Part shown: piece after piece, positions 25,781 to 37,357 of the stretch
Numbering within the stretch: the first letter of the stretch is position 1
Layout: every line of letters starts with the position of its first letter
DNA from: a bacterium
Lineage (GTDB): Bacteria; UBA8248
Assembly (NCBI GenBank): GCA_965261085.1
Contig: OZ253442.1
Span: 1,664,001-1,728,000 of the forward strand
DNA: 64,000 bases
Direction of reading: 5' to 3'
The notes under the pieces: model-generated
The model's database searches: none
Told to the model about the DNA's origin: nothing
What the model saw: only the letters and a program-made list of their open reading frames with translations
Program-made: the position numbers and the translations under genes

Positions 25781-27103
25781 TCATCTTGAATCCACCATAA
25801 ATTCGAGTTTTTTGTTTTGACGACGAAGGCCCGCTAAAGTGTAGATATTACTCTTTAACTTATTGCATGGGCCACAAAGAAGAACTCGATTTGAGATATG
25901 ATTTAAGCCACCATCGGAACGAGGCGTATTATGATCTAATTCCAGATATCTAGGATCATCAAATTCTCGATCACATCCTTGGCATTTTTGTCCATATTGG
26001 TCCAATAAAAATTCGTACATTTCTGCACGAGTCCTTTTTTCACCTTTAGGCTCATCTACTTTTAATTTAGTTTTCAGAAAAGGAACAGCCTCTTCTCCAT
26101 CGTCCGTACGAACAGGAAGTTCTCTAGTATAGGTTATCGTTCCTTGAGTAATGAGCCATTCACCCCACTCTTCGTCGGGCGTTACTAACTGCTCTTGCTT
26201 GAATCTATGAAGCACTGCATCGTGCGCTCCGGCCCAGATATCCGCCCCCACCCATTGGCGTTTAAGCCGTTCAGCCGCAACTAATGTTGTGGCACAACCG
26301 CAAAACGGATCAAGAACAATGTCATTAGGGTTAGACCCAACCTTAACGATGCGGTCAAAAAGCTGAATTGGTTTCTGTGTAGGGTAACCATACCGCTCTT
26401 TTGACATTGGGGGTATAGCGGGTATATCCCACCAATCTTCAGGTATCTTGCCATCTTTATGGGGCATATATGTTTTACCTGTATCCTTACGGGTAACCCC
26501 CCTCCCCGAAGTTTGATAACCGCCTGTCCCCCTATATGGCACCCGCGTTCTGTCGGCATTAAAAACCCAATTCTTGCCCTTAGAATACCAAAATATAATG
26601 TCGTGTTTACGTGCAAACTCCTTAGATGAACGCCCTCCCTGCCTATAACACCATATAATTTCATTCCGAAAATTCTTGTGTCCAAAAACAGCATCCATAA
26701 TGGCTTTGAGATAGTGGCTCGCCGTTGGATCACAATGGAGATAAATACTTCCATCTTCTCGTAGTATTCGCTTCATTTCTAACAACCGTACAGCCATAAA
26801 GCACATATAGGCACCCATACCATCCGAATGAGCATATCGAGCGCTCTCTATTGCTTCCATTAGTTTCGGGAAATCGTCTGTAATCTTATCAACCCATTCC
26901 TGATGAACATCCCTATCCCAAGACCACCTATCCTGAAAAGAAGCACCATCGGCTAGGCTATCTGGCGTAGCATGAAAATCTCGATTCTTGTTGAAGGGCG
27001 GATCAGTAGCAATCAGATGAATAGAATTACTATTGATCTCACGAAGAAAATCTAGGTTATCGCCATGATAAAGAGTTCGATTTTCGACATTTAATTTCGA
27101 CAT
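25781..27103 (-). CDS. N6/N4 DNA methyltransferase fused to a C-terminal HNH nuclease
   Basis: DPPF, YPTQKP and DPFCGCAT; C-terminal CQGC..DH..P...GG..H..N..LLC..CN; AT-rich. Confidence 0.88.
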   Translation of the reverse strand: MSKLNVENRTLYHGDNLDFLREINSNSIHLIATDPPFNKNRDFHATPDSLADGASFQDRWSWDRDVHQEWVDKITDDFPKLMEAIESARYAHSDGMGAYMCFMAVRLLEMKRILREDGSIYLHCDPTASHYLKAIMDAVFGHKNFRNEIIWCYRQGGRSSKEFARKHDIIFWYSKGKNWVFNADRTRVPYRGTGGYQTSGRGVTRKDTGKTYMPHKDGKIPEDWWDIPAIPPMSKERYGYPTQKPIQLFDRIVKVGSNPNDIVLDPFCGCATTLVAAERLKRQWVGADIWAGAHDAVLHRFKQEQLVTPDEEWGEWLITQGTITYTRELPVRTDDGEEAVPFLKTKLKVDEPKGEKRTRAEMYEFLLDQYGQKCQGCDREFDDPRYLELDHNTPRSDGGLNHISNRVLLCGPCNKLKSNIYTLAGLRRQNKKLEFMVDSR

Positions 27104-27318: not shown

Positions 27319-29010
27319 TCAAAGCACCTGTGGCGCGCCGCCCAAAGGGGTGGGCTTGACGACCGCGTCGATGAGGAAGGGTTTCTCGCTTCGGGCGGCC
27401 TCTGCAAGACACGCTTCCAGTTCATCGGGCGTATGGACGCGGGCGGCTTCCACGCCCATCGATTCCGCCAGCTTGATGAAGTCCAGGTTCGGTTCGGTCA
27501 GGTCCATGCCGACGAAGCGGTGAAATTCCTTCGCTTTTCCCTCCAGGGCCAGCACGCGCCCTTTCAGGATGTGGTAGGCCCCGTTGTTCGCGATGAGGAA
27601 GACCACGCCGACCTTGTACCTCGCCGCCGTCCAAAGGGTCTGGTTGGAATACATGGCCGAGCCGTCTCCCGAGAGACAGATGACGGGTCGATCGGGCGTC
27701 GCTATCTTGGCGCCCAGCGCCATGGGCAGGCCGTTTCCGATGCCGCCGCCCTTTCTGCCGAAAATCTGTGAAGCGTTGCGCCCCACCGCGCGCCGGAAGT
27801 TAGGCCCGGCGGAGGTGAGCGCCTCATCCACCCACACGGCGCCCTCGGGCGCCACTGCGCCGAGCGCCCGGTGGAAAGCGGGGAGGGACATGCCTCCCGA
27901 AAAATCACTCTCCTCTTTTGGAGATGAGGCGGCCTCGCGGGCGCTTTGGTTCTCTTTCGCAATCCGCTCCGCGCGCGATTTCGCTCCCGCTGCCTGCTCG
28001 CTCGTCTGCGCTTTTTTGACCGCCTCACGCAAGACGGGGAGCGTGGTTTTCGGGTCTCCGTAGAGCGAGGCGTCGAGTCCGAAATTCTTGCCCATCTCCC
28101 ATGTGTTCAAATCCAGATGCACGACCCGGCAGCTTTCGGGCAGGGGCCGCACGTCGGGGGGGTATGAGAACAGGAATACTTCCGTGCCGACGAGGAATAC
28201 CAGATCCGACTCCGCAAGGCGCTCCCTGAGGGGCCTGGCCAGATTGGGGAGCTTCCCGGCGTAGAGCGGGTGCGCGAGGGGATAGGTGATCATGTTGGCG
28301 AAATTTTCTTCATAGACTCTGGCGCCGATTTGTTCGGCGAACTGCGCCAGTTCGCCCAGCGCGCTCGATTTTGCGACGCCTGAGCCCGAGACGACCACGG
28401 GCCGCTCCGCTTTCGCGATGAGCTCGGCTGCCGCTTCGATGGACTCGGCAGATGCGGCGAAGCGCGTGTGAATGCGCGTGGGCTTTTCCATCAGACCCGA
28501 GGCGGCGCTAAGCATGACGTCTCCGGGGAGAGAGAGGAATACGGGCCCAGTCGGCGGCGTGAGGCACACCTTGATAGCGCGCCGCACGGCCTGTTCCAGG
28601 TCCTCGACGCGGCGTACTTCATACGACCACTTCACCAGGGGTTCCGCCATGCGCGCGAGATCGTCATAGAGGATGATTTCCTGAAAATGCCCGCTTTGGG
28701 GCTGGTTCCCGGCGGTGACGAGCATGGGCGCTCCAGAGCGCTTGGCGTTGTAGAGAAGCCCCATCGCGTTGCCGAGGCCGGGCGCAACGTGAAGGTTGAC
28801 GGCGGCGGGCTTACCCGTACTCAGGCCGTATCCTTCCGCCGCCGAGATGGCCACACCCTCATGCAGCGTGAGAATGAACTTGAGCCTTTCTTCGTTCACG
28901 AGCGCGTCCATCAAGGGAAGCTCCGTCGTGCCGGGATTCCCGAACAGGTGCGTCACTCCCTCATCGAGCAGGGTTTCCAGGAACAAGGATGCGCCGTTTT
29001 TGTTTCTCAT
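27319..29010 (-). CDS. Thiamine pyrophosphate-binding enzyme (benzoylformate decarboxylase-like)
   Basis: FGNPGTTELP, LHEG, GDGSAMY..NN. Confidence 0.9.
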   Translation of the reverse strand: MRNKNGASLFLETLLDEGVTHLFGNPGTTELPLMDALVNEERLKFILTLHEGVAISAAEGYGLSTGKPAAVNLHVAPGLGNAMGLLYNAKRSGAPMLVTAGNQPQSGHFQEIILYDDLARMAEPLVKWSYEVRRVEDLEQAVRRAIKVCLTPPTGPVFLSLPGDVMLSAASGLMEKPTRIHTRFAASAESIEAAAELIAKAERPVVVSGSGVAKSSALGELAQFAEQIGARVYEENFANMITYPLAHPLYAGKLPNLARPLRERLAESDLVFLVGTEVFLFSYPPDVRPLPESCRVVHLDLNTWEMGKNFGLDASLYGDPKTTLPVLREAVKKAQTSEQAAGAKSRAERIAKENQSAREAASSPKEESDFSGGMSLPAFHRALGAVAPEGAVWVDEALTSAGPNFRRAVGRNASQIFGRKGGGIGNGLPMALGAKIATPDRPVICLSGDGSAMYSNQTLWTAARYKVGVVFLIANNGAYHILKGRVLALEGKAKEFHRFVGMDLTEPNLDFIKLAESMGVEAARVHTPDELEACLAEAARSEKPFLIDAVVKPTPLGGAPQVL

Positions 29011-29028
29011 CGATGAAACCTCTAAAAA

Positions 29029-29763
29029 TTAGTGGAAATGAATGCCGCCGTTCAGAAGGAGGGTCTGGCCCGTAATGTAGCCGTTTCTAATCATCATCAT
29101 AATGGCGTCGACCGTCTCCTCCACCGTGCCGAACCGCTCCATCGGGTTATGGGGGGTGGAGACTTGTAAGTCTTGCGTCATCATGTCGGTTTTTATTACG
29201 GCGGGCGCCACGCTGTTCATCGTGATGCCTTCTTTCACCAGGGCGGCGGCGTAGGCGTGGGTGAGCCCGTGCATGCCCGCCTTGGAAGCCGCGTAGTGCG
29301 GCCCGACCCGCCCTCCGGTGAAGGCGGCGTTCGATGAGACGTTGACGATTCTTCCCCACCGCGCTTGTTTCATGTCGGGCAGAACGGCCTGTGTGAGTAA
29401 AAACGCGGACTTGAGATTCACGTCGAGCGTGGCGTCCCAATCGGATTCGGTGAGTTCCTCAAATGGCTTCTTGATGGCGACGCCTGCGTTGTTCACGAGA
29501 ATCGAGACGGGGCCGAAGCGCGCTCTCGTCTCATCCACGAGGCGGCGGACTTGCGCCTCGTCCGATACGTCGGCTTTCACGGGATGCGCCTCTCCGCCCG
29601 CTTCATCTATCAGGCGGCAGGCTTCTCCCGCTTCGTCCGCGCGCTCGCGGTAGTTCACCGCCACGCGGCAGCCCGCGCCCCCTAATGCCAGCGCGCATCC
29701 GCGCCCGATGCCCCGGCTCGCGCCGGTGACGATGCAGGTTTTCCCCTTCAAATCCGGTGGCAA
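29029..29763 (-). CDS. Short-chain dehydrogenase/reductase
   Basis: TGASRGIG, NNAG, YAASK. Confidence 0.92.
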   Translation of the reverse strand: MPPDLKGKTCIVTGASRGIGRGCALALGGAGCRVAVNYRERADEAGEACRLIDEAGGEAHPVKADVSDEAQVRRLVDETRARFGPVSILVNNAGVAIKKPFEELTESDWDATLDVNLKSAFLLTQAVLPDMKQARWGRIVNVSSNAAFTGGRVGPHYAASKAGMHGLTHAYAAALVKEGITMNSVAPAVIKTDMMTQDLQVSTPHNPMERFGTVEETVDAIMMMIRNGYITGQTLLLNGGIHFH

Positions 29764-29873
29764 CTCGGGGCCCTCACAGAATGAGAATATGAACGCCCAT
29801 CCTAATCCATACGCCGCGAGATGGGCAGTCGAGATGGGGATTTTTGTTATGGTTTGAGAAATCTACAAGAAGA

Positions 29874-29902
29874 TTGACAGTGAGAAACGAGAAGTATATT
29901 TT
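29874..29902 (+). promoter_or_regulatory. Putative sigma70 promoter for the repeat-RT locus
   Basis: TTGACA (29874-29879), 17 nt, TATTTT (29897-29902); the predicted start lies about 10 nt before repeat 1. Confidence 0.55.
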
Positions 29903-29920
29903 CAAATTGCGTATCCGTGA

Positions 29921-30056
29921 TCGTCGCCGGGCATATATTGTGCGCCGGAAAGACGGGAAGCGGGCCACCATTTGTCGGTAACGTTCCGATGAAGGGTGGA
30001 CGGGTTGCCGACGGATGTGTCTTATCAGACCCATTCGCAGGTCCCGTGAAGCAACA
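29921..30056 (+). repeat. 136-bp structured direct repeat 1 (candidate ncRNA module)
   Basis: Identical to 30312-30447 except T30018 vs G30409; contains nested hairpins. Confidence 0.95.
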
Positions 30057-30311
30057 GGTTAGCCTTGCCTCAGGAATGACCGTTGCCCTCGATGTGGAGG
30101 TCCAGATCGAGTGTCGGGCGGTCAATGGGGCAAATTATAGGCTGCGCCTGTCCGGGGCGGTCGATTTGGACTTGCTTTCCTCGCGAAAAAGGTACAATGC
30201 TTTAAGGAGGAACGCACGATGAAATCGCACCCATGCAAAAACGTGCCAACTTCCGAGTTGGACATGTAGCTATCAGATTTGTTCACGTGATAGCGCTTGC
30301 AGTTACGTTGC

Positions 30312-30447
30312 TCGTCGCCGGGCATATATTGTGCGCCGGAAAGACGGGAAGCGGGCCACCATTTGTCGGTAACGTTCCGATGAAGGGTGGACGGGTTGCC
30401 GACGGATGGGTCTTATCAGACCCATTCGCAGGTCCCGTGAAGCAACA
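30312..30447 (+). repeat. 136-bp structured direct repeat 2 (candidate ncRNA module)
   Basis: Same sequence as repeat 1; additionally closable by GTTGCT(30307-12)/AGCAAC(30441-46). Confidence 0.95.
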
Positions 30448-30503
30448 ATGCTTCCAGAGGCAAGGCGAGGCAATCCGACGTCGCCTGCCCCAGAGATCCT
30501 TTA

Positions 30504-32252
30504 GTGGTGAACTTATTTATTGAAGCAACAAAACAGTCTTCTCTTCGCCATGCATGGTACAGGATCCGTGCAAATGGTATCCGATCACCGCAACAAGAGA
30601 CCCGTGATGCCATTAATGAATTTGAACGCGCTGCTGAGAACTATATTGTCCGTGTTCAGAGAAGATTACGTAATGGCAGCTTTTTGTTTGAACCACAAAC
30701 AGGTGTTAGGAAGAAAAAGCGAAGTGGCGGAAAAAGGGGCATCGTCATGGCCCCTATTCAAAACCGAATCGTCGAGCGTGCTTGGCTGAACTGTCTGCAA
30801 AAACATGTGCCCTTTGTCCGCAATGTGATTCAGACGCCGACGAGCGTAGGCGGCGTTCCTGATCGAAGCGTTCCGCATGGACTACTTCTCATCCGTGGTT
30901 CTATGCGCGAAGGAAAAAAGTGTTTCATTCGGGCGGATATTTCGGGATTTTTTGACGGAATCCCGCGTCGCGATGTCATCTGCACATTGGGGCAGCATAT
31001 TGATGATGGCAATTTCCTGAAGACTTTGGAAGCTGCAACCGAAGTAACCTTGGAGAATGAAAAAGCGCTCGGTGAAGATCGGAAGCTTTTTCCGACTGAT
31101 AGAGAAGGTGTAGCACAAGGATCACCTCTCTCCGCCTTGTTCGGCAATATTCTACTTCATAAATTTGACAAGCAGTTTAATGAACGAGGGATTGTATGCG
31201 TTCGCTTCATAGATGATTTCATCATGCTTGGCGAACGACAAAGTGATGTACGCAAGGCGTTTGAGAATGCAAATGTGCATCTGGAGGATCTTGGTCTCAA
31301 ATGCCATGACCCTTTCAAGAGTGAAACGTCCCAAGGCAAGGCGCAGTATGGCCTTGTTGAAAGTGGTTTTATCTTTCTTGGTTACGATATTCGGCCTGGC
31401 CTTATGCAACCGTCAAAGCAAGCACGGAAGACGTTCTTAAATACGCTGGATCGTCATCTTAGATATGGTCGAGAAGCGATTTTAGATGTTTTGAGCGCGC
31501 AGGACAGCTTCGCGCATCGGCAACGTTATGTGCAGACTTTGGCTCTGCTAGATCGAGTTGTCCGTGGCTGGGGAAACTCGTTCGCTTATTCAAATGCGAC
31601 AGCTACAACGAATGACCTTGACAAACAAATCGAGCTTAAGATTGAGCAGTTTCGTGATTGGTATCGGCGCAAATTGCGCGATGCTGATTGGAAGGCAAAA
31701 CGCCGGGCTGGCGGCGTGTGCCTCCTGGCTGATATCGAGTCGAAAAGCCTTGATGAGCTTCCATTTCGCTTAGGAGAAAGAAAACGATATCGGCGAACAA
31801 AAGGTATGATCGTTGTTTCGACCGACGGTTCGGTGATCGGTGCTGGTCCTCGTGCTGGACGCGATAAGGGCCCAGGTGGCTGGGGAGTCGTTTTTCATAG
31901 TAGTGGTAAAGAGGCGAGTGGGAACGCTTCTGATGTGACGAATAACGAAATGGAGTTGGTGGCTGTCATTGAGGCGCTAAAGCTAACGCCTCCAGGAAGC
32001 AGGGTAAAAATTCGAACTGACAGCCAGTACGTTTATCGTGCGGTACAGGAAAATGCGATGATAAGTTCAAATACCGCGCTATGGAGTTGCTACAAAATCT
32101 TGAGTGCTGAAAGAAAAATCGATGTTGTCTGGATAAAGGGTCACGCAGGTGATCAGCACAATGAACGAGCAAATGAACTGGCTCGGCAGCAGGCCAGTAA
32201 CATGCTCGACTCATCCAAGGCGGGGGGATGGGCGCGCGTGGAATCGCCCTGA
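30504..32252 (+). CDS. Group II-like (G2L-type) reverse transcriptase fused to C-terminal RNase HI
   Basis: RT motifs K.SGGKRGI....NRIVER, ADISGFFD, GVAQGSPLS.LFGNI.L..FD, RFIDDF, FLGY, and thumb/domain-X-like VRGWGNSF. RNase H motifs TDGS..GPGGWG, TNNEMEL, TDSQY, WIKGH...NERANELA. Confidence 0.93.
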   Translation: MVNLFIEATKQSSLRHAWYRIRANGIRSPQQETRDAINEFERAAENYIVRVQRRLRNGSFLFEPQTGVRKKKRSGGKRGIVMAPIQNRIVERAWLNCLQKHVPFVRNVIQTPTSVGGVPDRSVPHGLLLIRGSMREGKKCFIRADISGFFDGIPRRDVICTLGQHIDDGNFLKTLEAATEVTLENEKALGEDRKLFPTDREGVAQGSPLSALFGNILLHKFDKQFNERGIVCVRFIDDFIMLGERQSDVRKAFENANVHLEDLGLKCHDPFKSETSQGKAQYGLVESGFIFLGYDIRPGLMQPSKQARKTFLNTLDRHLRYGREAILDVLSAQDSFAHRQRYVQTLALLDRVVRGWGNSFAYSNATATTNDLDKQIELKIEQFRDWYRRKLRDADWKAKRRAGGVCLLADIESKSLDELPFRLGERKRYRRTKGMIVVSTDGSVIGAGPRAGRDKGPGGWGVVFHSSGKEASGNASDVTNNEMELVAVIEALKLTPPGSRVKIRTDSQYVYRAVQENAMISSNTALWSCYKILSAERKIDVVWIKGHAGDQHNERANELARQQASNMLDSSKAGGWARVESP

Positions 32253-32295
32253 CGGGATTCAGGAGGAGAGGAGCGCGTCGTCCCGCCTTAAGAAA

Positions 32296-33180
32296 TCACT
32301 TGCCCCACACGACGGCCCATGCGCCCAGGACGGAACACGCCCCGCCGATGATGACCTGCGCGCTTATGCGCTCTTGTTTTCTGAAAAAAAGCCAGGAGAA
32401 GAGGATGACGATCAGGATCGAGAGCCGGTTGATGGGAACCACCTGAATAACCTCTCCGTCCTTGATCGCCCACCAGAAGAAAAATGCGGCCAGAAAATTG
32501 CACACCGCGCCCAGGGACGTGATCGTGAGCGAATGGCGGGTGAAGGGGGCGCTTTTCATCTGGAGCGTCGGGAGGAAGAAAAAGCTCGAGACCAGCAGTG
32601 TGAGCGACGTCATGTTCGAGATGCTCATTCCCAGACTGACCGATGGAATGTGGACGAAGCCGTATTTGCGCACGATGTGCGAGATGCTCGCAAAGGCGGC
32701 CCCCACCACGGGGATGAGGTAATAAGTGAGCGGAACCCGTCTTTCGATGGCTTTCTTGTCGTATAGGAGCAGGACCCCGCCCGCCATGATGCCCAGCGTC
32801 CCCAGCGTCACCAGGGGGGTGAGCGTCTCGCCCAATAGAATGACGGCCAGCCCTGTGGACCAGATGAGCCCCGTTTGCGTCAGTATGGGCGTGCGGGCCA
32901 GGCCCAGAAGCTTGATGGATATCATCCCCATGTAGCGCCCGCCCAATCCGCCGACCACCCCCACGAGAACGAACCACAAGACCCCGTAGAGCGGCCAGTG
33001 GTCGAGCCCCTCGCCCATCGCATAGAGGCCCAGGGCGAAGAAGGTGGTGATGATCGTCGCGATTACCGTAGTCACGAGGGGGCTCAAGCTCATGAGCGCG
33101 CCCCGGTAGAGGGTTCTGGCGACGGAGATGAAAAACGCCGAGAGAAGCGCCATCAGGTTGGGATGCAGTGGCTCGAGCAA
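32296..33180 (-). CDS. DMT/EamA family transporter
   Basis: About 10 hydrophobic segments in two repeats; LLGE motif. Confidence 0.85.
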   Translation of the reverse strand: MLEPLHPNLMALLSAFFISVARTLYRGALMSLSPLVTTVIATIITTFFALGLYAMGEGLDHWPLYGVLWFVLVGVVGGLGGRYMGMISIKLLGLARTPILTQTGLIWSTGLAVILLGETLTPLVTLGTLGIMAGGVLLLYDKKAIERRVPLTYYLIPVVGAAFASISHIVRKYGFVHIPSVSLGMSISNMTSLTLLVSSFFFLPTLQMKSAPFTRHSLTITSLGAVCNFLAAFFFWWAIKDGEVIQVVPINRLSILIVILFSWLFFRKQERISAQVIIGGACSVLGAWAVVWGK

Positions 33181-33302
33181 ATGGAAAACCTGAGATAAGA
33201 GAAAAACCTATTATCCACCCGCGGAGGGGGCAGGGCAAGGGAGGGGTTCCGACCAATGCAAGAGGAATTGCGACCGAAGAGGGATGATTGCGATTGGACC
33301 GA

Positions 33303-33612
33303 CGTCATTCCGGCGCATGCCGGAATCCAGGCGGACGAGGAGTTCATCGGTTCTAGATTCCAGCATGCGCCGGAATGACGGTGTTACAGGACAATCTCGA
33401 CCGATGACGTAGGAGCAGCGCCTTTGTAGGTCGGACATATATGTCCGCCACCCATATATGCGTCCCATGCTCTATCGTCTTCAAAAGAAGGGTCGCAACA
33501 TGTGCGACCTCTACGAGGTTCCTCCTGCCCGCCACGCGCGAACGGCTCCTACGCCCTAGTAGGGTCCGTTCGCGAATGGTGGGGCGACCCCGAAATGAGG
33601 CCGCCCCTACCA
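33303..33612. repeat. REP cluster: GTCATTCCGGCGCATGCCGGAATCC inverted pair plus GTAG-type palindromes
   Basis: Palindromes seen directly; same family as those at 4338, 4469, 14852, 14968 and 35476. Confidence 0.75.
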
Positions 33613-33622
33613 TGTATTCGTT

Positions 33623-35398
33623 CTACTTCTCAGGCACCACGGGCAGCATGATGTAAGACGCGTGGTCCGGTCCGCAGTGGAGTGTCACGTTTTTCCCAAA
33701 TATCTCCTCGGGCCTGTCCGTGGGGTCATCGTGTAAGAACGGCCCGCAGCCCCTGAACACGTTCTTCATGTTCGAGAGTTTGTGTGTCGTGGCGCAACTG
33801 TACTCATAATCCTTGCCGCGCACGCTGAGCGCCAGCCGGTAGCCGGGGGGCGCCACGATGCAGGTGGGCCAGACCTCGATGTCGAGATCATATATCTCAC
33901 CGGGGTTTAAGTATTGCTTCTCATCATGCGCCTGGTAGGGCTTCCACTCGGTGGACAACTCGGGCACGAGCTTTCTGTGCGAGGCCCGGAGCCAGCCCTG
34001 CGCGATGGGGGTGTTCGGGTCGAGCGTGCCCTGGAAGGTGATCTCCTTCATATCGGGCGTGAACAGGCGCAAGACGAGGAACAAGTCCGCGTCCTCGGTT
34101 TCCGAGGAAACGAAAAGCTTGGACGCGATGGGGCCCGTTATCTCCGTCTCCTTCTCAAAGGGCGGCAGCATGAAGGTCACGCCGTCGCTCAACCCCGCGT
34201 AGGTGATGGTTTGCTTGGCCTCGAGAGGTGCGGAACCCAGGTTCATGTGGGCCGGGTCCAGATAAAACTTCGTCCACTGCGTGCGTGCGAGGGGCCATTC
34301 GTTCTCGCCGCGCTCGACGAATTTTTCCCCCACGTGTCGCACCTTGAGCATGACGGGCGGTTTTTCCATCCAGCCTGTGTCTTCACCCTTCAAGTAATGG
34401 CCAAAAAACTGTTTCTGGAGCTTTTCCCCGTAGGGGGTGTAAAACTCCGTCCAGTGCTCGAAGCCGTGGACTTCCAGCCATTTCTCGGTAGAGGCCGCCC
34501 GCATGAAGCCCTCGTAGTTTCCCCTGGGGTGTAAGCCCTGTCCGCCCCAACTCGCCGCCGAGATGAAGGGTGTTTTTATCTTGTCCCAGTGGGCGGAGCG
34601 ATCTGTATACCACTCGCCATCCAGCGGGCGTTCGAGGATGTCACCCCCGTAGTCCGAGCGGTTTTTCTCCATCTCTTCTTCGCTCAAGGTCTCGGGGCCG
34701 CAGGCCAGACCGCCGTGGACGCGGCTTTTCGGGCCGTTCTCCCCCAGGCCGTACTGCACGCTTTTGACCTGCATGTCGTACCAGTTGGCGAGGAACGTCG
34801 TGAGGATGCCGCCCTGGTGGCTCATGTCGCGGTAGAAATCGGCCGATCCCTCCCAGACGCACATGGCGGCCAGATTTTTGGGTTGCAGTCCCGCCACATG
34901 CCATTGGTTGATGGCGTAATAGGAGATTCCCGTGAGGCCCACCTTGCCGTTGCACCAGGGCTGCTCGCCCGCCCAGTCGATGCAGATGGCGAAATCCTTG
35001 GTCTCGCGCGGGGAGAAGTGGTCGATATAGCCCGGCGAGCGGCCGGCGCCGCGCGAATCCACGCGCACGCAGATGTAGCCGTCCGGCACCCATTTCTCGG
35101 GGTCCACGACCTCCCAGCTCTGGTGGACGTTCGAGGAGCCTTCGATGGCGTCTGGATGCGCGCCGGCGAAAAGCTCCCACGCCGTCTCGTACCCGTCCTG
35201 CCATGCCAGGTCCTTCGCATAGGGGCCGTAGCTTAATATGACGGGGTATTTGCCGTCATCATCGGGACGGTAGACGTTCGCCCGCAGCACCAGGCCGTCT
35301 TCCATCCGGATGGGGACGTCCCATTCGATAAGAAAGCCGTCTCGTTTCTCGGTTCGGTATTGAGGGTCCGTGCTCAGGTCGATATCGCTCATGTTCAC
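33623..35398 (-). CDS. CocE/NonD family serine hydrolase
   Basis: YGPY.K, DSRGAGRSPG, GISYY; PepX C-terminal domain (GWLRASHR). Confidence 0.93.
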   Translation of the reverse strand: MNMSDIDLSTDPQYRTEKRDGFLIEWDVPIRMEDGLVLRANVYRPDDDGKYPVILSYGPYAKDLAWQDGYETAWELFAGAHPDAIEGSSNVHQSWEVVDPEKWVPDGYICVRVDSRGAGRSPGYIDHFSPRETKDFAICIDWAGEQPWCNGKVGLTGISYYAINQWHVAGLQPKNLAAMCVWEGSADFYRDMSHQGGILTTFLANWYDMQVKSVQYGLGENGPKSRVHGGLACGPETLSEEEMEKNRSDYGGDILERPLDGEWYTDRSAHWDKIKTPFISAASWGGQGLHPRGNYEGFMRAASTEKWLEVHGFEHWTEFYTPYGEKLQKQFFGHYLKGEDTGWMEKPPVMLKVRHVGEKFVERGENEWPLARTQWTKFYLDPAHMNLGSAPLEAKQTITYAGLSDGVTFMLPPFEKETEITGPIASKLFVSSETEDADLFLVLRLFTPDMKEITFQGTLDPNTPIAQGWLRASHRKLVPELSTEWKPYQAHDEKQYLNPGEIYDLDIEVWPTCIVAPPGYRLALSVRGKDYEYSCATTHKLSNMKNVFRGCGPFLHDDPTDRPEEIFGKNVTLHCGPDHASYIMLPVVPEK

Positions 35399-35605: not shown

Positions 35606-37357
35606 TTATTTCTCGGGTATCACCGGCAGCATCACGTAGGCCGCGTGCTCTCCGCCGCAGTGTAAGGTGACGTTTTTCCCGAACACCGCGGCCGGCCTGT
35701 CCTTGGGGTCGGTGTGAATAAAACAACCGCAACCAGTGAACTCGTTTTTCATGTTGGAGAGGCCGCCGCCCACGCCGCCCGGATATTCATAGTCCTTTCC
35801 GCGCACCGTGAAGGCGACCCGGTAGCCCTCGGGAATCACGATGCAGGTCGGCCAAATCTCGATGTCGAGTTCATAGACCGCACCCGGCGTCAGGGGTTGT
35901 TCCTCATCGTGCGTGTGGTAGGGCCTGTAGGGCAGTGTTTTTTCAGGGTCGAGTTTCCTGTGCGAGGCTCTCAGCCAGCCCTGCGCGATGGGGGTGTGCG
36001 GGTCGAGTGCGCCCTGGAATACGACTTCTTCCATGTTGGGCGAGAAGACGCGCACGACGAGGAAGAGGTCCGCGTCCCTCGACTCTGAGGACACGAAGAG
36101 CTTGGCCGCTATGGGGCCGGTGACTTCCGTGTCTTCGGAGATGGGCGTCGTGGTGAAGGTGACGCCGTCGCTGAAGCCCGCGTAGGTGGTGGCCGCAGCA
36201 TCTGCGACGGGGGCGTCTTCGAGCGAGTGTGTATTCGCGTTTAAGTAGTATTTCGTCCACTGCGTCCGCGCGAGGGGCCATTCGCTCTCGTGTCGCTCGA
36301 CGAAGCGCTCGCCGGGGTGGCGCACCTGGAGCAGCACCCGGGGCTGCTCCGGCCAGCCGGTGTCCTCGCCCTTGAGATAGTGGCCAAAGAATTTCTTCTG
36401 CATGTTGACGCCGTAGTCGGTGTAAAACTCCGTCCAGTGTTCGATGCCGTGGACTTCGAGCCATTTCTCCTCACAGCCGGTTTCGAGAAAACCCTCGAAG
36501 TTCCCGCGCGGGTGCAAGCCCTGTCCGCCCCAGTTGGCCGAAGAGAGGAGGGGTACCTGGATTTTACTGAAATCGGGCATTCTCGACTGCCAGAATTCGT
36601 CGGTGTCCAGCTTGTGGGAAAAACAATCCTCGCCGAAATCGTTTCGGTTCGCGCCGAGTTCCTCCTCGGTGAGGGTCGGAGGGCCGGAAACCCAATCGCC
36701 CGTGAAGCGGCTCTTGAAGCCGCGCTTGCCGCGACCGTGCTGCACGCTGTAGACCTGCATCTCGGGCCAGTTGCGCGCGAAGCCGTTACAGAAGATGCCG
36801 CCGTGGTGAGCCATTTCCCGGTAATAATCGGCCGCCCCCTCCCAGACGCACATGGCGGTCAGGTGCGGCGGCTGGAGCTCGCCCACCTGCCACTGGTTCA
36901 TGCCGTAATAGGAGATGCCGTTCAGCCCGATCTTGCCCGTGCTCCAGGGCTGCACCGCCGCCCATTCGATGCACTGGTAGAAGTCTTGCGCCTCGCGCGC
37001 CGACCAGATGTCGATGACGCCTGGGGATCTGCCCGCGCCGCGCGAATCCACGCGAATGCAGACGTAGCCGTCGGGCACCCATTTTTCCGGGTCCACGACC
37101 TCCCAGTTCTGGTACTTGTTGGTGGAGCCTGCGGGCACGTCAGGGTGTTCCTCGACCATGCGCGTCCAGCAGGTCTCGTATAGGTCTTCAAAGTGCAGGT
37201 ATTTCCCGTACGGGCCGTACGTCATGATGACGGGGTATTTCCCGTCGTCCTGGGGGCGGTATACGTCGCACCGCAGAACGACGCCGTCTTCCATGGGGAT
37301 GGGCGCGTCCCAGTCGATGCGCATCCCGTCTCTGTCTTCGGTCTTGAAATCGCTCAT
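35606..37357 (-). CDS. CocE/NonD family serine hydrolase (tandem paralog)
   Basis: Same motifs; collinear with its neighbour. Confidence 0.93.
   Translation of the reverse strand: MSDFKTEDRDGMRIDWDAPIPMEDGVVLRCDVYRPQDDGKYPVIMTYGPYGKYLHFEDLYETCWTRMVEEHPDVPAGSTNKYQNWEVVDPEKWVPDGYVCIRVDSRGAGRSPGVIDIWSAREAQDFYQCIEWAAVQPWSTGKIGLNGISYYGMNQWQVGELQPPHLTAMCVWEGAADYYREMAHHGGIFCNGFARNWPEMQVYSVQHGRGKRGFKSRFTGDWVSGPPTLTEEELGANRNDFGEDCFSHKLDTDEFWQSRMPDFSKIQVPLLSSANWGGQGLHPRGNFEGFLETGCEEKWLEVHGIEHWTEFYTDYGVNMQKKFFGHYLKGEDTGWPEQPRVLLQVRHPGERFVERHESEWPLARTQWTKYYLNANTHSLEDAPVADAAATTYAGFSDGVTFTTTPISEDTEVTGPIAAKLFVSSESRDADLFLVVRVFSPNMEEVVFQGALDPHTPIAQGWLRASHRKLDPEKTLPYRPYHTHDEEQPLTPGAVYELDIEIWPTCIVIPEGYRVAFTVRGKDYEYPGGVGGGLSNMKNEFTGCGCFIHTDPKDRPAAVFGKNVTLHCGGEHAAYVMLPVIPEK

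Follow-up and report, generated by a model that had tools for sequence, protein, structure and literature searches.

Two near-identical direct repeats and their spacer form one structured leader architecture upstream of a G2L4-like reverse transcriptase with an RNase HI domain

The stretch of DNA analysed here, referred to below as the window, comprises 64,000 nucleotides of contig OZ253442.1 (positions 1,664,001 to 1,728,000 of assembly GCA_965261085.1) from a bacterium of the GTDB lineage UBA8248. It contains on its forward strand a gene for a reverse transcriptase (RT) joined to an RNase H domain (positions 30504-32252, 582 aa), preceded by two direct repeats. The repeat copies R1 (29918-30056) and R2 (30309-30447), both on the forward strand and 139 nt long, are 99% identical and lie at a spacing of 391, with a 252-nt spacer between them and with the 3' end of R2 placed 56 nt ahead of the RT start codon. 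R1 and R2 are the known long direct repeats (LDRs) of G2L4 RTs, found here in a clade fused to RNase HI; passages of the main text of Park et al. (2022; bioRxiv 10.1101/2022.03.14.484287) describe two LDRs of ~140 bp with a ~240-bp spacer, preceding about 70% of G2L4 open reading frames (ORFs). We find that R1, R2 and the 252-nt spacer constitute one architecture of about 600 nt, whose pairings end at the RT translation start.

The preliminary description of this DNA had proposed an RT-associated multi-hairpin RNA element and had allowed that the repeat might prove to be dispersed in the genome and unlinked to RTs. The association holds: a BLAST search of the 4,267,820-bp genome returned R1 and R2 as the sole copies, both before the RT gene, and a covariance model of the repeat module recovered the same two copies (129.5 bits for R2 and 128.9 bits for R1), the next hit reaching 17.5 bits (E 0.05). 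Folding of window positions 30300-30503 gave -97.3 kcal/mol (z -6.17), and none of 200 shuffled sequences folded as well. Rfam covariance models run over window positions 28000-34000 on both strands yielded 0 matches at E values up to 1, and thus no intron domains. In contigs from four runs of one sample, the repeat formed a separate 136-nt contig at 1.6-1.9x the depth of its flanks, which, as far as the crude measure of contig depth allows, agrees with two genomic copies and does not hint at extra DNA in abundance; among the contigs of those four runs mapped at the repeats, there were no joints and no loose ends. The repeat observation is therefore real and far beyond chance, while the nesting first drawn for it was partly wrong.

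How a single module folds was examined on an alignment of 47 related modules, 43 of them distinct, together with their 3' flanks. RNAalifold on the plain MAFFT alignment gave merely 19 pairs, hence the structure was projected from the window onto the alignment. The whole module structure was 77.8% paired as against 66.1 +/- 0.6 in shuffled alignments, none of 500 reaching the observed value, and its covariation score was 0.369 compared with 0.185 in the shuffles and at most 0.169 in controls in which the structure was slid along the alignment. Covariation backs the three hairpins named in the preliminary description. H1, the CCGG-GCA..TGC-GCCGG hairpin (29927-29948 in R1, 30318-30339 in R2), is 90.7% paired; H2, formed by CCACC..GGTGG with an inner TCGG..CCGA (29965-29999 and 30356-30390), is 71.6% paired with compensatory change at 13 of its 13 pairs; and H3, the ATGGGTC..GACCCAT hairpin together with its base (30001-30046 and 30392-30437), is 79.9% paired. 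The helices given for R1 are those that were tested on copy 2. The outer stem ACGGGA..TCCCGT, which had been drawn as enclosing the second and third hairpins, did not survive: it is 69.4% paired, a level reached by 241 of the 500 shuffles. A second CGGG motif (30392-30395) pairs instead with CCCG (30434-30437) and encloses the hairpin of H3 only, a helix backed by covariation in which pair 127:170 occurs as GC (20), AU (12), GU (7) and CG (4). Each repeat is thus a row of three hairpins side by side and not one nest. The proposed closure of copy 2 by GTTGCT/AGCAAC fared no better, being only 48.8% paired, whereas a different closing helix around R2, in which 30295-30299 pair with 30439-30443, is 90.8% paired with compensatory change at two of its five pairs.

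The pairings extend well beyond the repeats. An alignment of 26 two-copy leaders (724 columns) gave leader helices that were 86.7% paired overall, compared with 77.0 in shuffles (0/500 reach the observed value), and the spacer proved to be as conserved as the repeats themselves. After R1 lies a segment, P1 (30062-30076), which is complementary to P2 (30452-30466) after R2 and was also found as an inverted repeat; the resulting 15-bp helix is 89.1% paired over the 26 loci, with compensatory change at 10 of its 15 pairs. P1 is followed by H5 (30078-30123), a long irregular spacer hairpin whose outer part is 99.0% paired and whose inner part is 83.8% paired, with 9 of 10 pairs compensatory. Just before the RT start, and adjoining the ribosome-binding region of the RT on its upstream side, stands H4 (30459-30489), the GGCAAGGCGA..TCGCCTGCC hairpin already noted in the preliminary description and upheld here, with 89.4% pairing over the 47 modules and 88.6% in the test of the following contact. 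Six bases on the 3' side of H5, where they form a bulge (K1, 30112-30117), are complementary to six in the loop of H4 (K2, 30475-30480); this K1:K2 contact is 96.8% paired and both of its variable positions covary, pair 268:677 being found as GC (12), GU (4), UA (3), AU (2) and UG (2). Because P2 has 8 nt in common with the 5' arm of H4 (30459-30466), P1:P2 and the complete H4 are mutually exclusive. A further hairpin, H6 (30269-30294), lies between a small ORF in the spacer and R2, and is 75.1% paired with all nine of its pairs compensatory, and a hairpin inside the small ORF itself is 84.0% paired.

Promoter-like signals are found at two places in this leader, both on the forward strand. Upstream of R1, a consensus scan identified a promoter-like site, TTGACA-17-TATTTT (29874-29902, 10/12 matches), that ends 16 nt before the repeat, and a promoter-like site occupies the same place before copy 1 of locus L083. 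Within the spacer, the scan called a terminator-like hairpin (30150-30171) in the stretch 30150-30198, overlapping a promoter-like element composed of TTGCTT (30172-30177), a 15-nt spacer and TACAAT (30193-30198). In the second hexamer of this element the T, the A and the final T are invariant in the 26 loci; the consensus scan calls homologous spacer sites in L090 and L083, which belong to two other clades, but not the window's own site with its 15-nt spacer.

The two copies differ in register at repeat position 3 (A/C) and at position 101 (T30018/G30409), which leaves one difference in the 136-mer version of the repeat used in the preliminary description. That single difference, and its weakening of the last hairpin of copy 1, are correct: T30018 mispairs in H3 of R1, and the folding energies are -58.6 kcal/mol for copy 1 and -69.1 kcal/mol for copy 2, with the position-3 difference included. 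The functional asymmetry that had been read from it is not sustained. Across 18 loci in register, 19 copy-to-copy differences are scattered and fall in either copy, and in L005 it is copy 2 that is damaged; the T/G difference of the window is therefore most plausibly a mutation of recent origin on which conversion has yet to act. The genuine asymmetry between R1 and R2 sits in their flanks, R1 being followed by P1 and H5, while R2 is enclosed by the closing helix and followed by P2 and H4.

Of the explanations offered at the outset for the near-identity of the copies, homogenisation is the one that the comparison among loci bears out. Within loci, 32 differences were counted in 2,945 aligned columns from 21 loci. 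When 12 pairs of loci were compared, 263 differences were common to both copies of a locus and 34 were confined to a single copy, while the orthologous pattern, in which R1 of the two loci agree and differ from an agreeing R2, accounted for 0 differences. On these sequence comparisons, R1 and R2 are kept identical by ongoing homogenisation. The process would most simply be RecA-type gene conversion between repeats 252 bp apart, with selection removing the frequent deletion products of recombination between the copies.

Recurrence of the pair among relatives was assessed in genomes and metagenomes. Among genome loci with 900 nt of upstream sequence, the repeat pair is present in 20 of 26, and six are without it; the pairs are 122-154 nt long and 97.6-100% identical, at a spacing of 380-425 (267 in one distant locus). 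Metagenome loci show the pair in 16 of 45 cases, in 8 of which the contig starts inside copy 1; a further 15 with at least 640 nt upstream show no pair, and 14 are too short to judge. Many contigs start ~100-200 or 430-600 nt before the RT, at repeat positions, as expected if the repeat breaks short-read assemblies, which suggests that it often does so; contigs starting 100-200 nt before the RT are those of L010-L014, L032, L042-L046, L050, L051, L054, L056 and L063. Single-module loci (L007, L015, L023, L024, L033, L040, L048, L049, L055, L059, L060, L062, L068 and L069) lie in some cases on megabase contigs. In L059 and L060 the upstream flank of copy 1 adjoins the module, which is then followed by the flank of copy 2. 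Such loci may reflect either a real deletion between the copies or the collapse of the repeat in assembly.

Linkage of the module to the RT is strict where both could be searched. In each of five RT-bearing genomes, that of the window and four other carriers, the covariance model gave two strong hits and no more, located at the RT locus, all other hits staying at or below 19 bits; the remaining 50 genomes of the class, from which the RT is likewise missing, yielded none. No neighbouring ORF is conserved across the window and 33 genome loci. A distant clade, with RTs 31-36% identical to that of the window and no RNase H match, has repeats unrelated in sequence that again form three hairpins, and its spacers hold a promoter-like motif, a small ORF and a segment complementary to the bases just before the RT start. 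On a finished Pseudomonas aeruginosa plasmid (NZ_CP131792.1, locus L090), a 415-aa RT of 33.5% identity is accompanied by two 137-nt repeats that are 99% identical at a spacing of 376, and the sequences after copy 1 and after copy 2 are complementary to each other over stretches of 12, 8 and 8 bp, of which one lies beside the start codon. The main-clade covariance model misses these plasmid repeats, its best hit (24.3 bits) falling elsewhere on the plasmid, which indicates that the architecture is conserved and not the sequence. On the same plasmid (L090, 3914-5690), a recombinase-family gene and then a TIR-domain gene come after the G2L4-like RT.

A more complicated situation is evident in the spacer and copy 2, where conserved RNA structure coincides with possible coding signals. 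A Shine-Dalgarno motif, AAGGAGG (30204-30210), precedes a putative small ORF (30219-30269, forward strand; MKSHPCKNVPTSELDM), postulated from motif conservation: the ribosome-binding motif, the start codon and the pattern x-K-N-(V/M)-P are found in most of the 26 main-clade loci listed, in six of six distant-clade loci and in the P. aeruginosa plasmid locus. The bases AAAAAC of the small ORF are invariant, synonymous sites included, in three clades (window 30219-30269; L090 2227-2277; the distant-clade spacers), and in the distant clade the small ORF stops at the 5' edge of copy 2. In the window, a second frame of 96 codons (30233-30523, forward strand) starts at an ATG inside the conserved GCATGCAAAAAC and remains open through R2. 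In 44 of 47 loci no stop codon interrupts this frame within the module, compared with 2/47 and 10/47 for the other two frames, its first codon positions are 49% G and 10% T, and in most two-copy loci it is opened by the conserved ATG (window 30233), 81 nt upstream. The encoded peptide would begin with MQK(R/H)A, in many cases ahead of a hydrophobic stretch, and the equivalent frame on the P. aeruginosa plasmid (L090) is annotated by PGAP as a 64-aa hypothetical protein. These features of the frame could be expected if copy 2 lay inside a small gene at 30233-30523, of which copy 1 would be an untranslated duplicate. However, variation in the module frame lacks any 3-base periodicity (entropy 1.14, 1.25 and 1.30 at the three codon positions), the peptide is conserved solely where the RNA motifs are, and the hydrophobic stretch is absent in several clades. 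Moreover, the stop of the frame falls anywhere between 130 nt before and 206 nt after the RT start, a spread of more than 300 nt, and the ATG, which the distant clade does not have, is preceded by no dedicated ribosome-binding motif. A functional protein from this frame seems unlikely; transit of ribosomes through copy 2 is possible.

Judged from its sequence matches, the RT itself belongs to the G2L4 class of group II intron-like RTs and carries an RNase HI domain in addition. Pfam assigns RVT_1 to aa 71-269 and RNase_H to aa 437-564, and the maturase-type domain GIIM matches weakly at aa 341-400 (22.8 bits, just below the 23-bit cut-off). In a phmmer search, aa 12-412 aligned with residues 12-410 of the 411 of PDB entry 9d5x_A, 'Group II intron-like 4 RT' (E 1.9e-75), with 9d4s_A matched too, and we accordingly delimit a G2L4-like RT at aa 12-412 and RNase HI at aa 437-566. 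The active site reads RFIDDF as compared with RYIDDF in 9d5x, so that the isoleucine of the FIDD motif is kept while Tyr is replaced by Phe. The best named family in PADLOC is RT_UG17 (E 6.5e-34). A protein search returned 316 relatives; among the matches listed, which are mostly alphaproteobacterial, 119 of 120 combine RT and RNase H, the one exception being a 417-aa entry from a 1,375-bp contig. The RNase HI residues D441, E484 and D506 are invariant in 32 relatives. The family consensus NERAD reads NERAN in the protein of the window. A distant second RT-like match is present in the same genome (L004, G000:C1:1149765-1150457), with 25% identity over aa 40-270 and a 506-aa open frame.

The promoter-like site, R1, the spacer, R2 and the RT-RNase H gene together make up an inserted cassette (29846-32200, forward strand), since synteny breaks at 29845 and 32201 in L085, L087 and L088. 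Genomes of the same genus lack the cassette and carry there instead ~999 bp of other, real (non-N) sequence; the cassette, present in 1 of 51 genomes of the class, is a horizontally acquired insertion. The end of the cassette cuts the RT ORF near codon 566, and the last ~17 codons, which lie beyond it, stem from the flank, indicating that the native C-terminal tail was lost on insertion. Neighbours of the RT gene in the window are a short-chain dehydrogenase/reductase, a thiamine pyrophosphate enzyme, peptidases and a hypothetical gene. Two adjacent paralogous X-Pro dipeptidyl-peptidase (S15) genes lie on the reverse strand (33623-35398 and 35606-37357), with further copies, ~70% identical, elsewhere in the genome, and an ORF at 25781-27103, also on the reverse strand, has an N6/N4 DNA methylase domain joined to an HNH endonuclease domain at the C-terminus.

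We suggest that the leader is an RT-linked regulatory or scaffold RNA that couples the upstream module to RT translation or activity, a reading that we hold to be the most likely one, at about even odds. The element would be the RNA partner of its own RT, descended from the RNA-protein relationship of an intron, with the modules predicted to bind the RT or to serve as its scaffold; solved structures show G2L4 RTs as homodimers. Through the contacts P1:P2, H4 and K1:K2, the upstream module would be linked to the point where translation of the RT mRNA starts, whether it belongs to that mRNA or is transcribed separately from a putative promoter of its own. Folding of the RNA would set RT synthesis or activity, and translation of the small ORF would be a further input. 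In the passages of Park et al. (2022), sense-strand RNA read depth over the LDRs was 20-fold above that of the ORF, and co-expression of the LDRs modulated survival after DNA damage with the protein level unchanged.

Several observations weigh against this reading. The unchanged protein level is one of them, albeit of light weight, as the RT in that experiment was a tagged fusion expressed from a vector (Park et al., 2022, main-text passages). The frame kept open through the great majority of modules is not predicted by a pure RNA-scaffold model. Altogether, 21 loci with enough upstream sequence show no pair, and the 14 that were examined have a single module and no spacer motifs, so that the paired architecture is either dispensable or often lost. 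Finally, the extra RNase H domain hints at the formation of RNA/DNA hybrids, something easier to reconcile with a template role than with regulation alone.

Such a template role, in which the leader would be template or primer RNA reverse-transcribed by its own RT, as in retrons, DRT2 or DRT10, is the best surviving alternative, although we consider it unlikely. P1:P2 would place the priming end beside the 3' edge of copy 2, and identical modules together with RNase H would make strand transfer from one copy to the other possible, much as with retroviral R repeats. In addition, the genomic repeats could be re-converted by the cDNA. In its favor are the fusion of the RT to an RNase HI domain with invariant D441, E484 and D506, the inverted pair P1:P2 flanking the spacer and copy 2, the strictly concerted evolution of the copies, and the use of upstream noncoding RNA templates by related group II-like RTs (UG17/DRT10), as far as the published passages describe it. 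On the other hand, the depth of the repeat contig fits just two genomic copies, a crude measure that should be interpreted with caution given that single-stranded DNA may be lost in library preparation, and no priming site was identified in the leader. The topology of P1:P2 is unlike that of retron a1/a2, with the RT-proximal module lying outside the enclosed loop, and the published G2L4 work concerns DNA repair by end joining without an RNA template. The most explicit form of this scenario, in which the RT-RNase H copies its own leader, with P1:P2 positioning the priming, RNase H freeing the cDNA and copy 1 accepting it, is in our view decidedly improbable. If true, it would imply an RT-made DNA product and a re-conversion of the repeats by cDNA, that is, a non-mutagenic homing resembling that of diversity-generating retroelements (DGRs); it would explain the identity of the copies in every lineage and give G2L4 an RNA-templated activity beside end joining.

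A cis-regulatory leader acting independently of the RT protein is doubtful, more so than a template role in general. In this scenario, the leader would resemble a riboswitch or an attenuator, and translation of the small ORF, a ligand or a stress signal would pick between P1:P2 and H4 and thereby set RT translation. The conservation of the small ORF and its ribosome-binding motif in three clades speaks for it, as do the mutual exclusivity of P1:P2 and H4, each supported by covariation, and the fact that the small ORF of the distant clade stops where copy 2 begins. RNAs that sense ligands, however, tend to be shared by several gene families, whereas this module is found upstream of no other gene in the genomes searched (two hits per genome, both at the RT locus) and no Rfam family matches it, and attenuation needs no two identical modules.

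A role at the level of DNA, with the repeats either as substrates of recombination (for example a deletion switch that takes out the spacer together with its promoter and small ORF) or as the termini of a mobile unit, has in our estimation only a slim chance of being correct. All 14 single-module loci examined are without any spacer motif, and the junction in L059 and L060 is the product expected from copy 1 x copy 2 recombination; short-read assembly collapse, however, yields the same single-copy picture. The cassette is horizontally acquired, and integrases are found nearby in Pseudomonas according to passages of Park et al. (2022), but both repeats lie on one side of the gene and cannot bound an element, and the cassette ends (29846 and 32200) are not at the repeats. 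Compensatory changes in six or more helices show selection on RNA folding and not just on DNA identity. The protein-coding explanation of the repeat is, for the reasons given with the open frame above, the least probable of all, and by a similar reckoning hardly to be expected.

Among domesticated group II intron RTs, those of G2L4 have been studied best, and their role is in double-strand-break repair. The repeat pair before most of them has been left unexplained since 2022, and the comparative model presented here makes it testable by compensatory mutation. The large alphaproteobacterial clade fused to RNase HI provides a natural bacterial RT-RNase H enzyme and hints that RNA/DNA hybrids matter for the family; in the literature searched, as far as its accessible passages go, no description of a bacterial RT-RNase HI fusion of the G2L4 class was found.

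Among known systems, the published G2L4 LDRs are the closest. They too consist of two direct repeats of ~140 bp, separated by a ~240-bp spacer and placed immediately ahead of an RT of the G2L4 class, and the passages of Park et al. (2022) call them palindromic and conserved, in a cassette that looks horizontally acquired. The present locus differs in the extra RNase HI domain of its RT and in a host other than Pseudomonas. The main-text passages of that preprint, the supplement lying outside them, contain no function or fold for the LDRs, and neither a secondary-structure model nor long-range pairings, a small ORF or concerted evolution. A full-text literature search combining the LDR term with reverse transcriptase returned the 2022 preprint alone, and two later G2L4 papers mention neither LDR nor direct repeat (PMC13728195 and PMC11761039), nor RNase H (the former) or an RNase H domain (the latter). 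Within the parts of the literature that could be searched, the structural model, the long-range pairings, the small ORF, the concerted evolution and the RNase H-fused clade thus appear as additions.

DRT2, DRT10/UG17 and the retrons likewise place a structured noncoding RNA immediately upstream of a single RT gene, and RT_UG17 is matched here, but G2L4 is a far better match for this RT, no conserved SLATT or effector gene is nearby and no short template repeats were recognised in the leader. Membership in UG17/DRT10 was rejected on the grounds of this better fit and of the lack of SLATT or any other conserved neighbour in the window and 33 loci, and membership in the retrons because NCBIfam retron_St85_RT scored 32.5 bits against a cut-off of 235 and the best solved relative is G2L4. 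The template and variable repeats of DGRs resemble the present pair as two near-identical repeats of ~130-140 bp, a few hundred bases apart beside an RT and evolving in concert; here, in contrast, copy 1 does not form the end of any target gene and the RT is not of the DGR type. A DGR was rejected in the absence of any adenine bias, A being found in copy 2 at 3 of the 19 differences and in copy 1 at 3 of the 19.

Retroviral R repeats are identical direct repeats in the RNA of an RT-RNase H enzyme and are used for strand transfer. The present repeats share with them their identity and their place in RNA belonging to an RT-RNase H enzyme, but both lie 5' of the gene and do not flank it, and the locus has no integrase and no primer-binding site. 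A retroelement of the long terminal repeat type was rejected, both copies being upstream of the RT-RNase H gene with no third copy in the genome. Domain IVa of group II introns, finally, is bound by the intron-encoded RT, which thereby autoregulates its translation. No ribozyme accompanies the present leader according to Rfam, and its modules are duplicated and joined by long-range pairings; as in domain IVa, however, a structured hairpin, in this case H4, stands directly upstream of the start of a group II-type RT, whose lineage derives from intron-encoded proteins.

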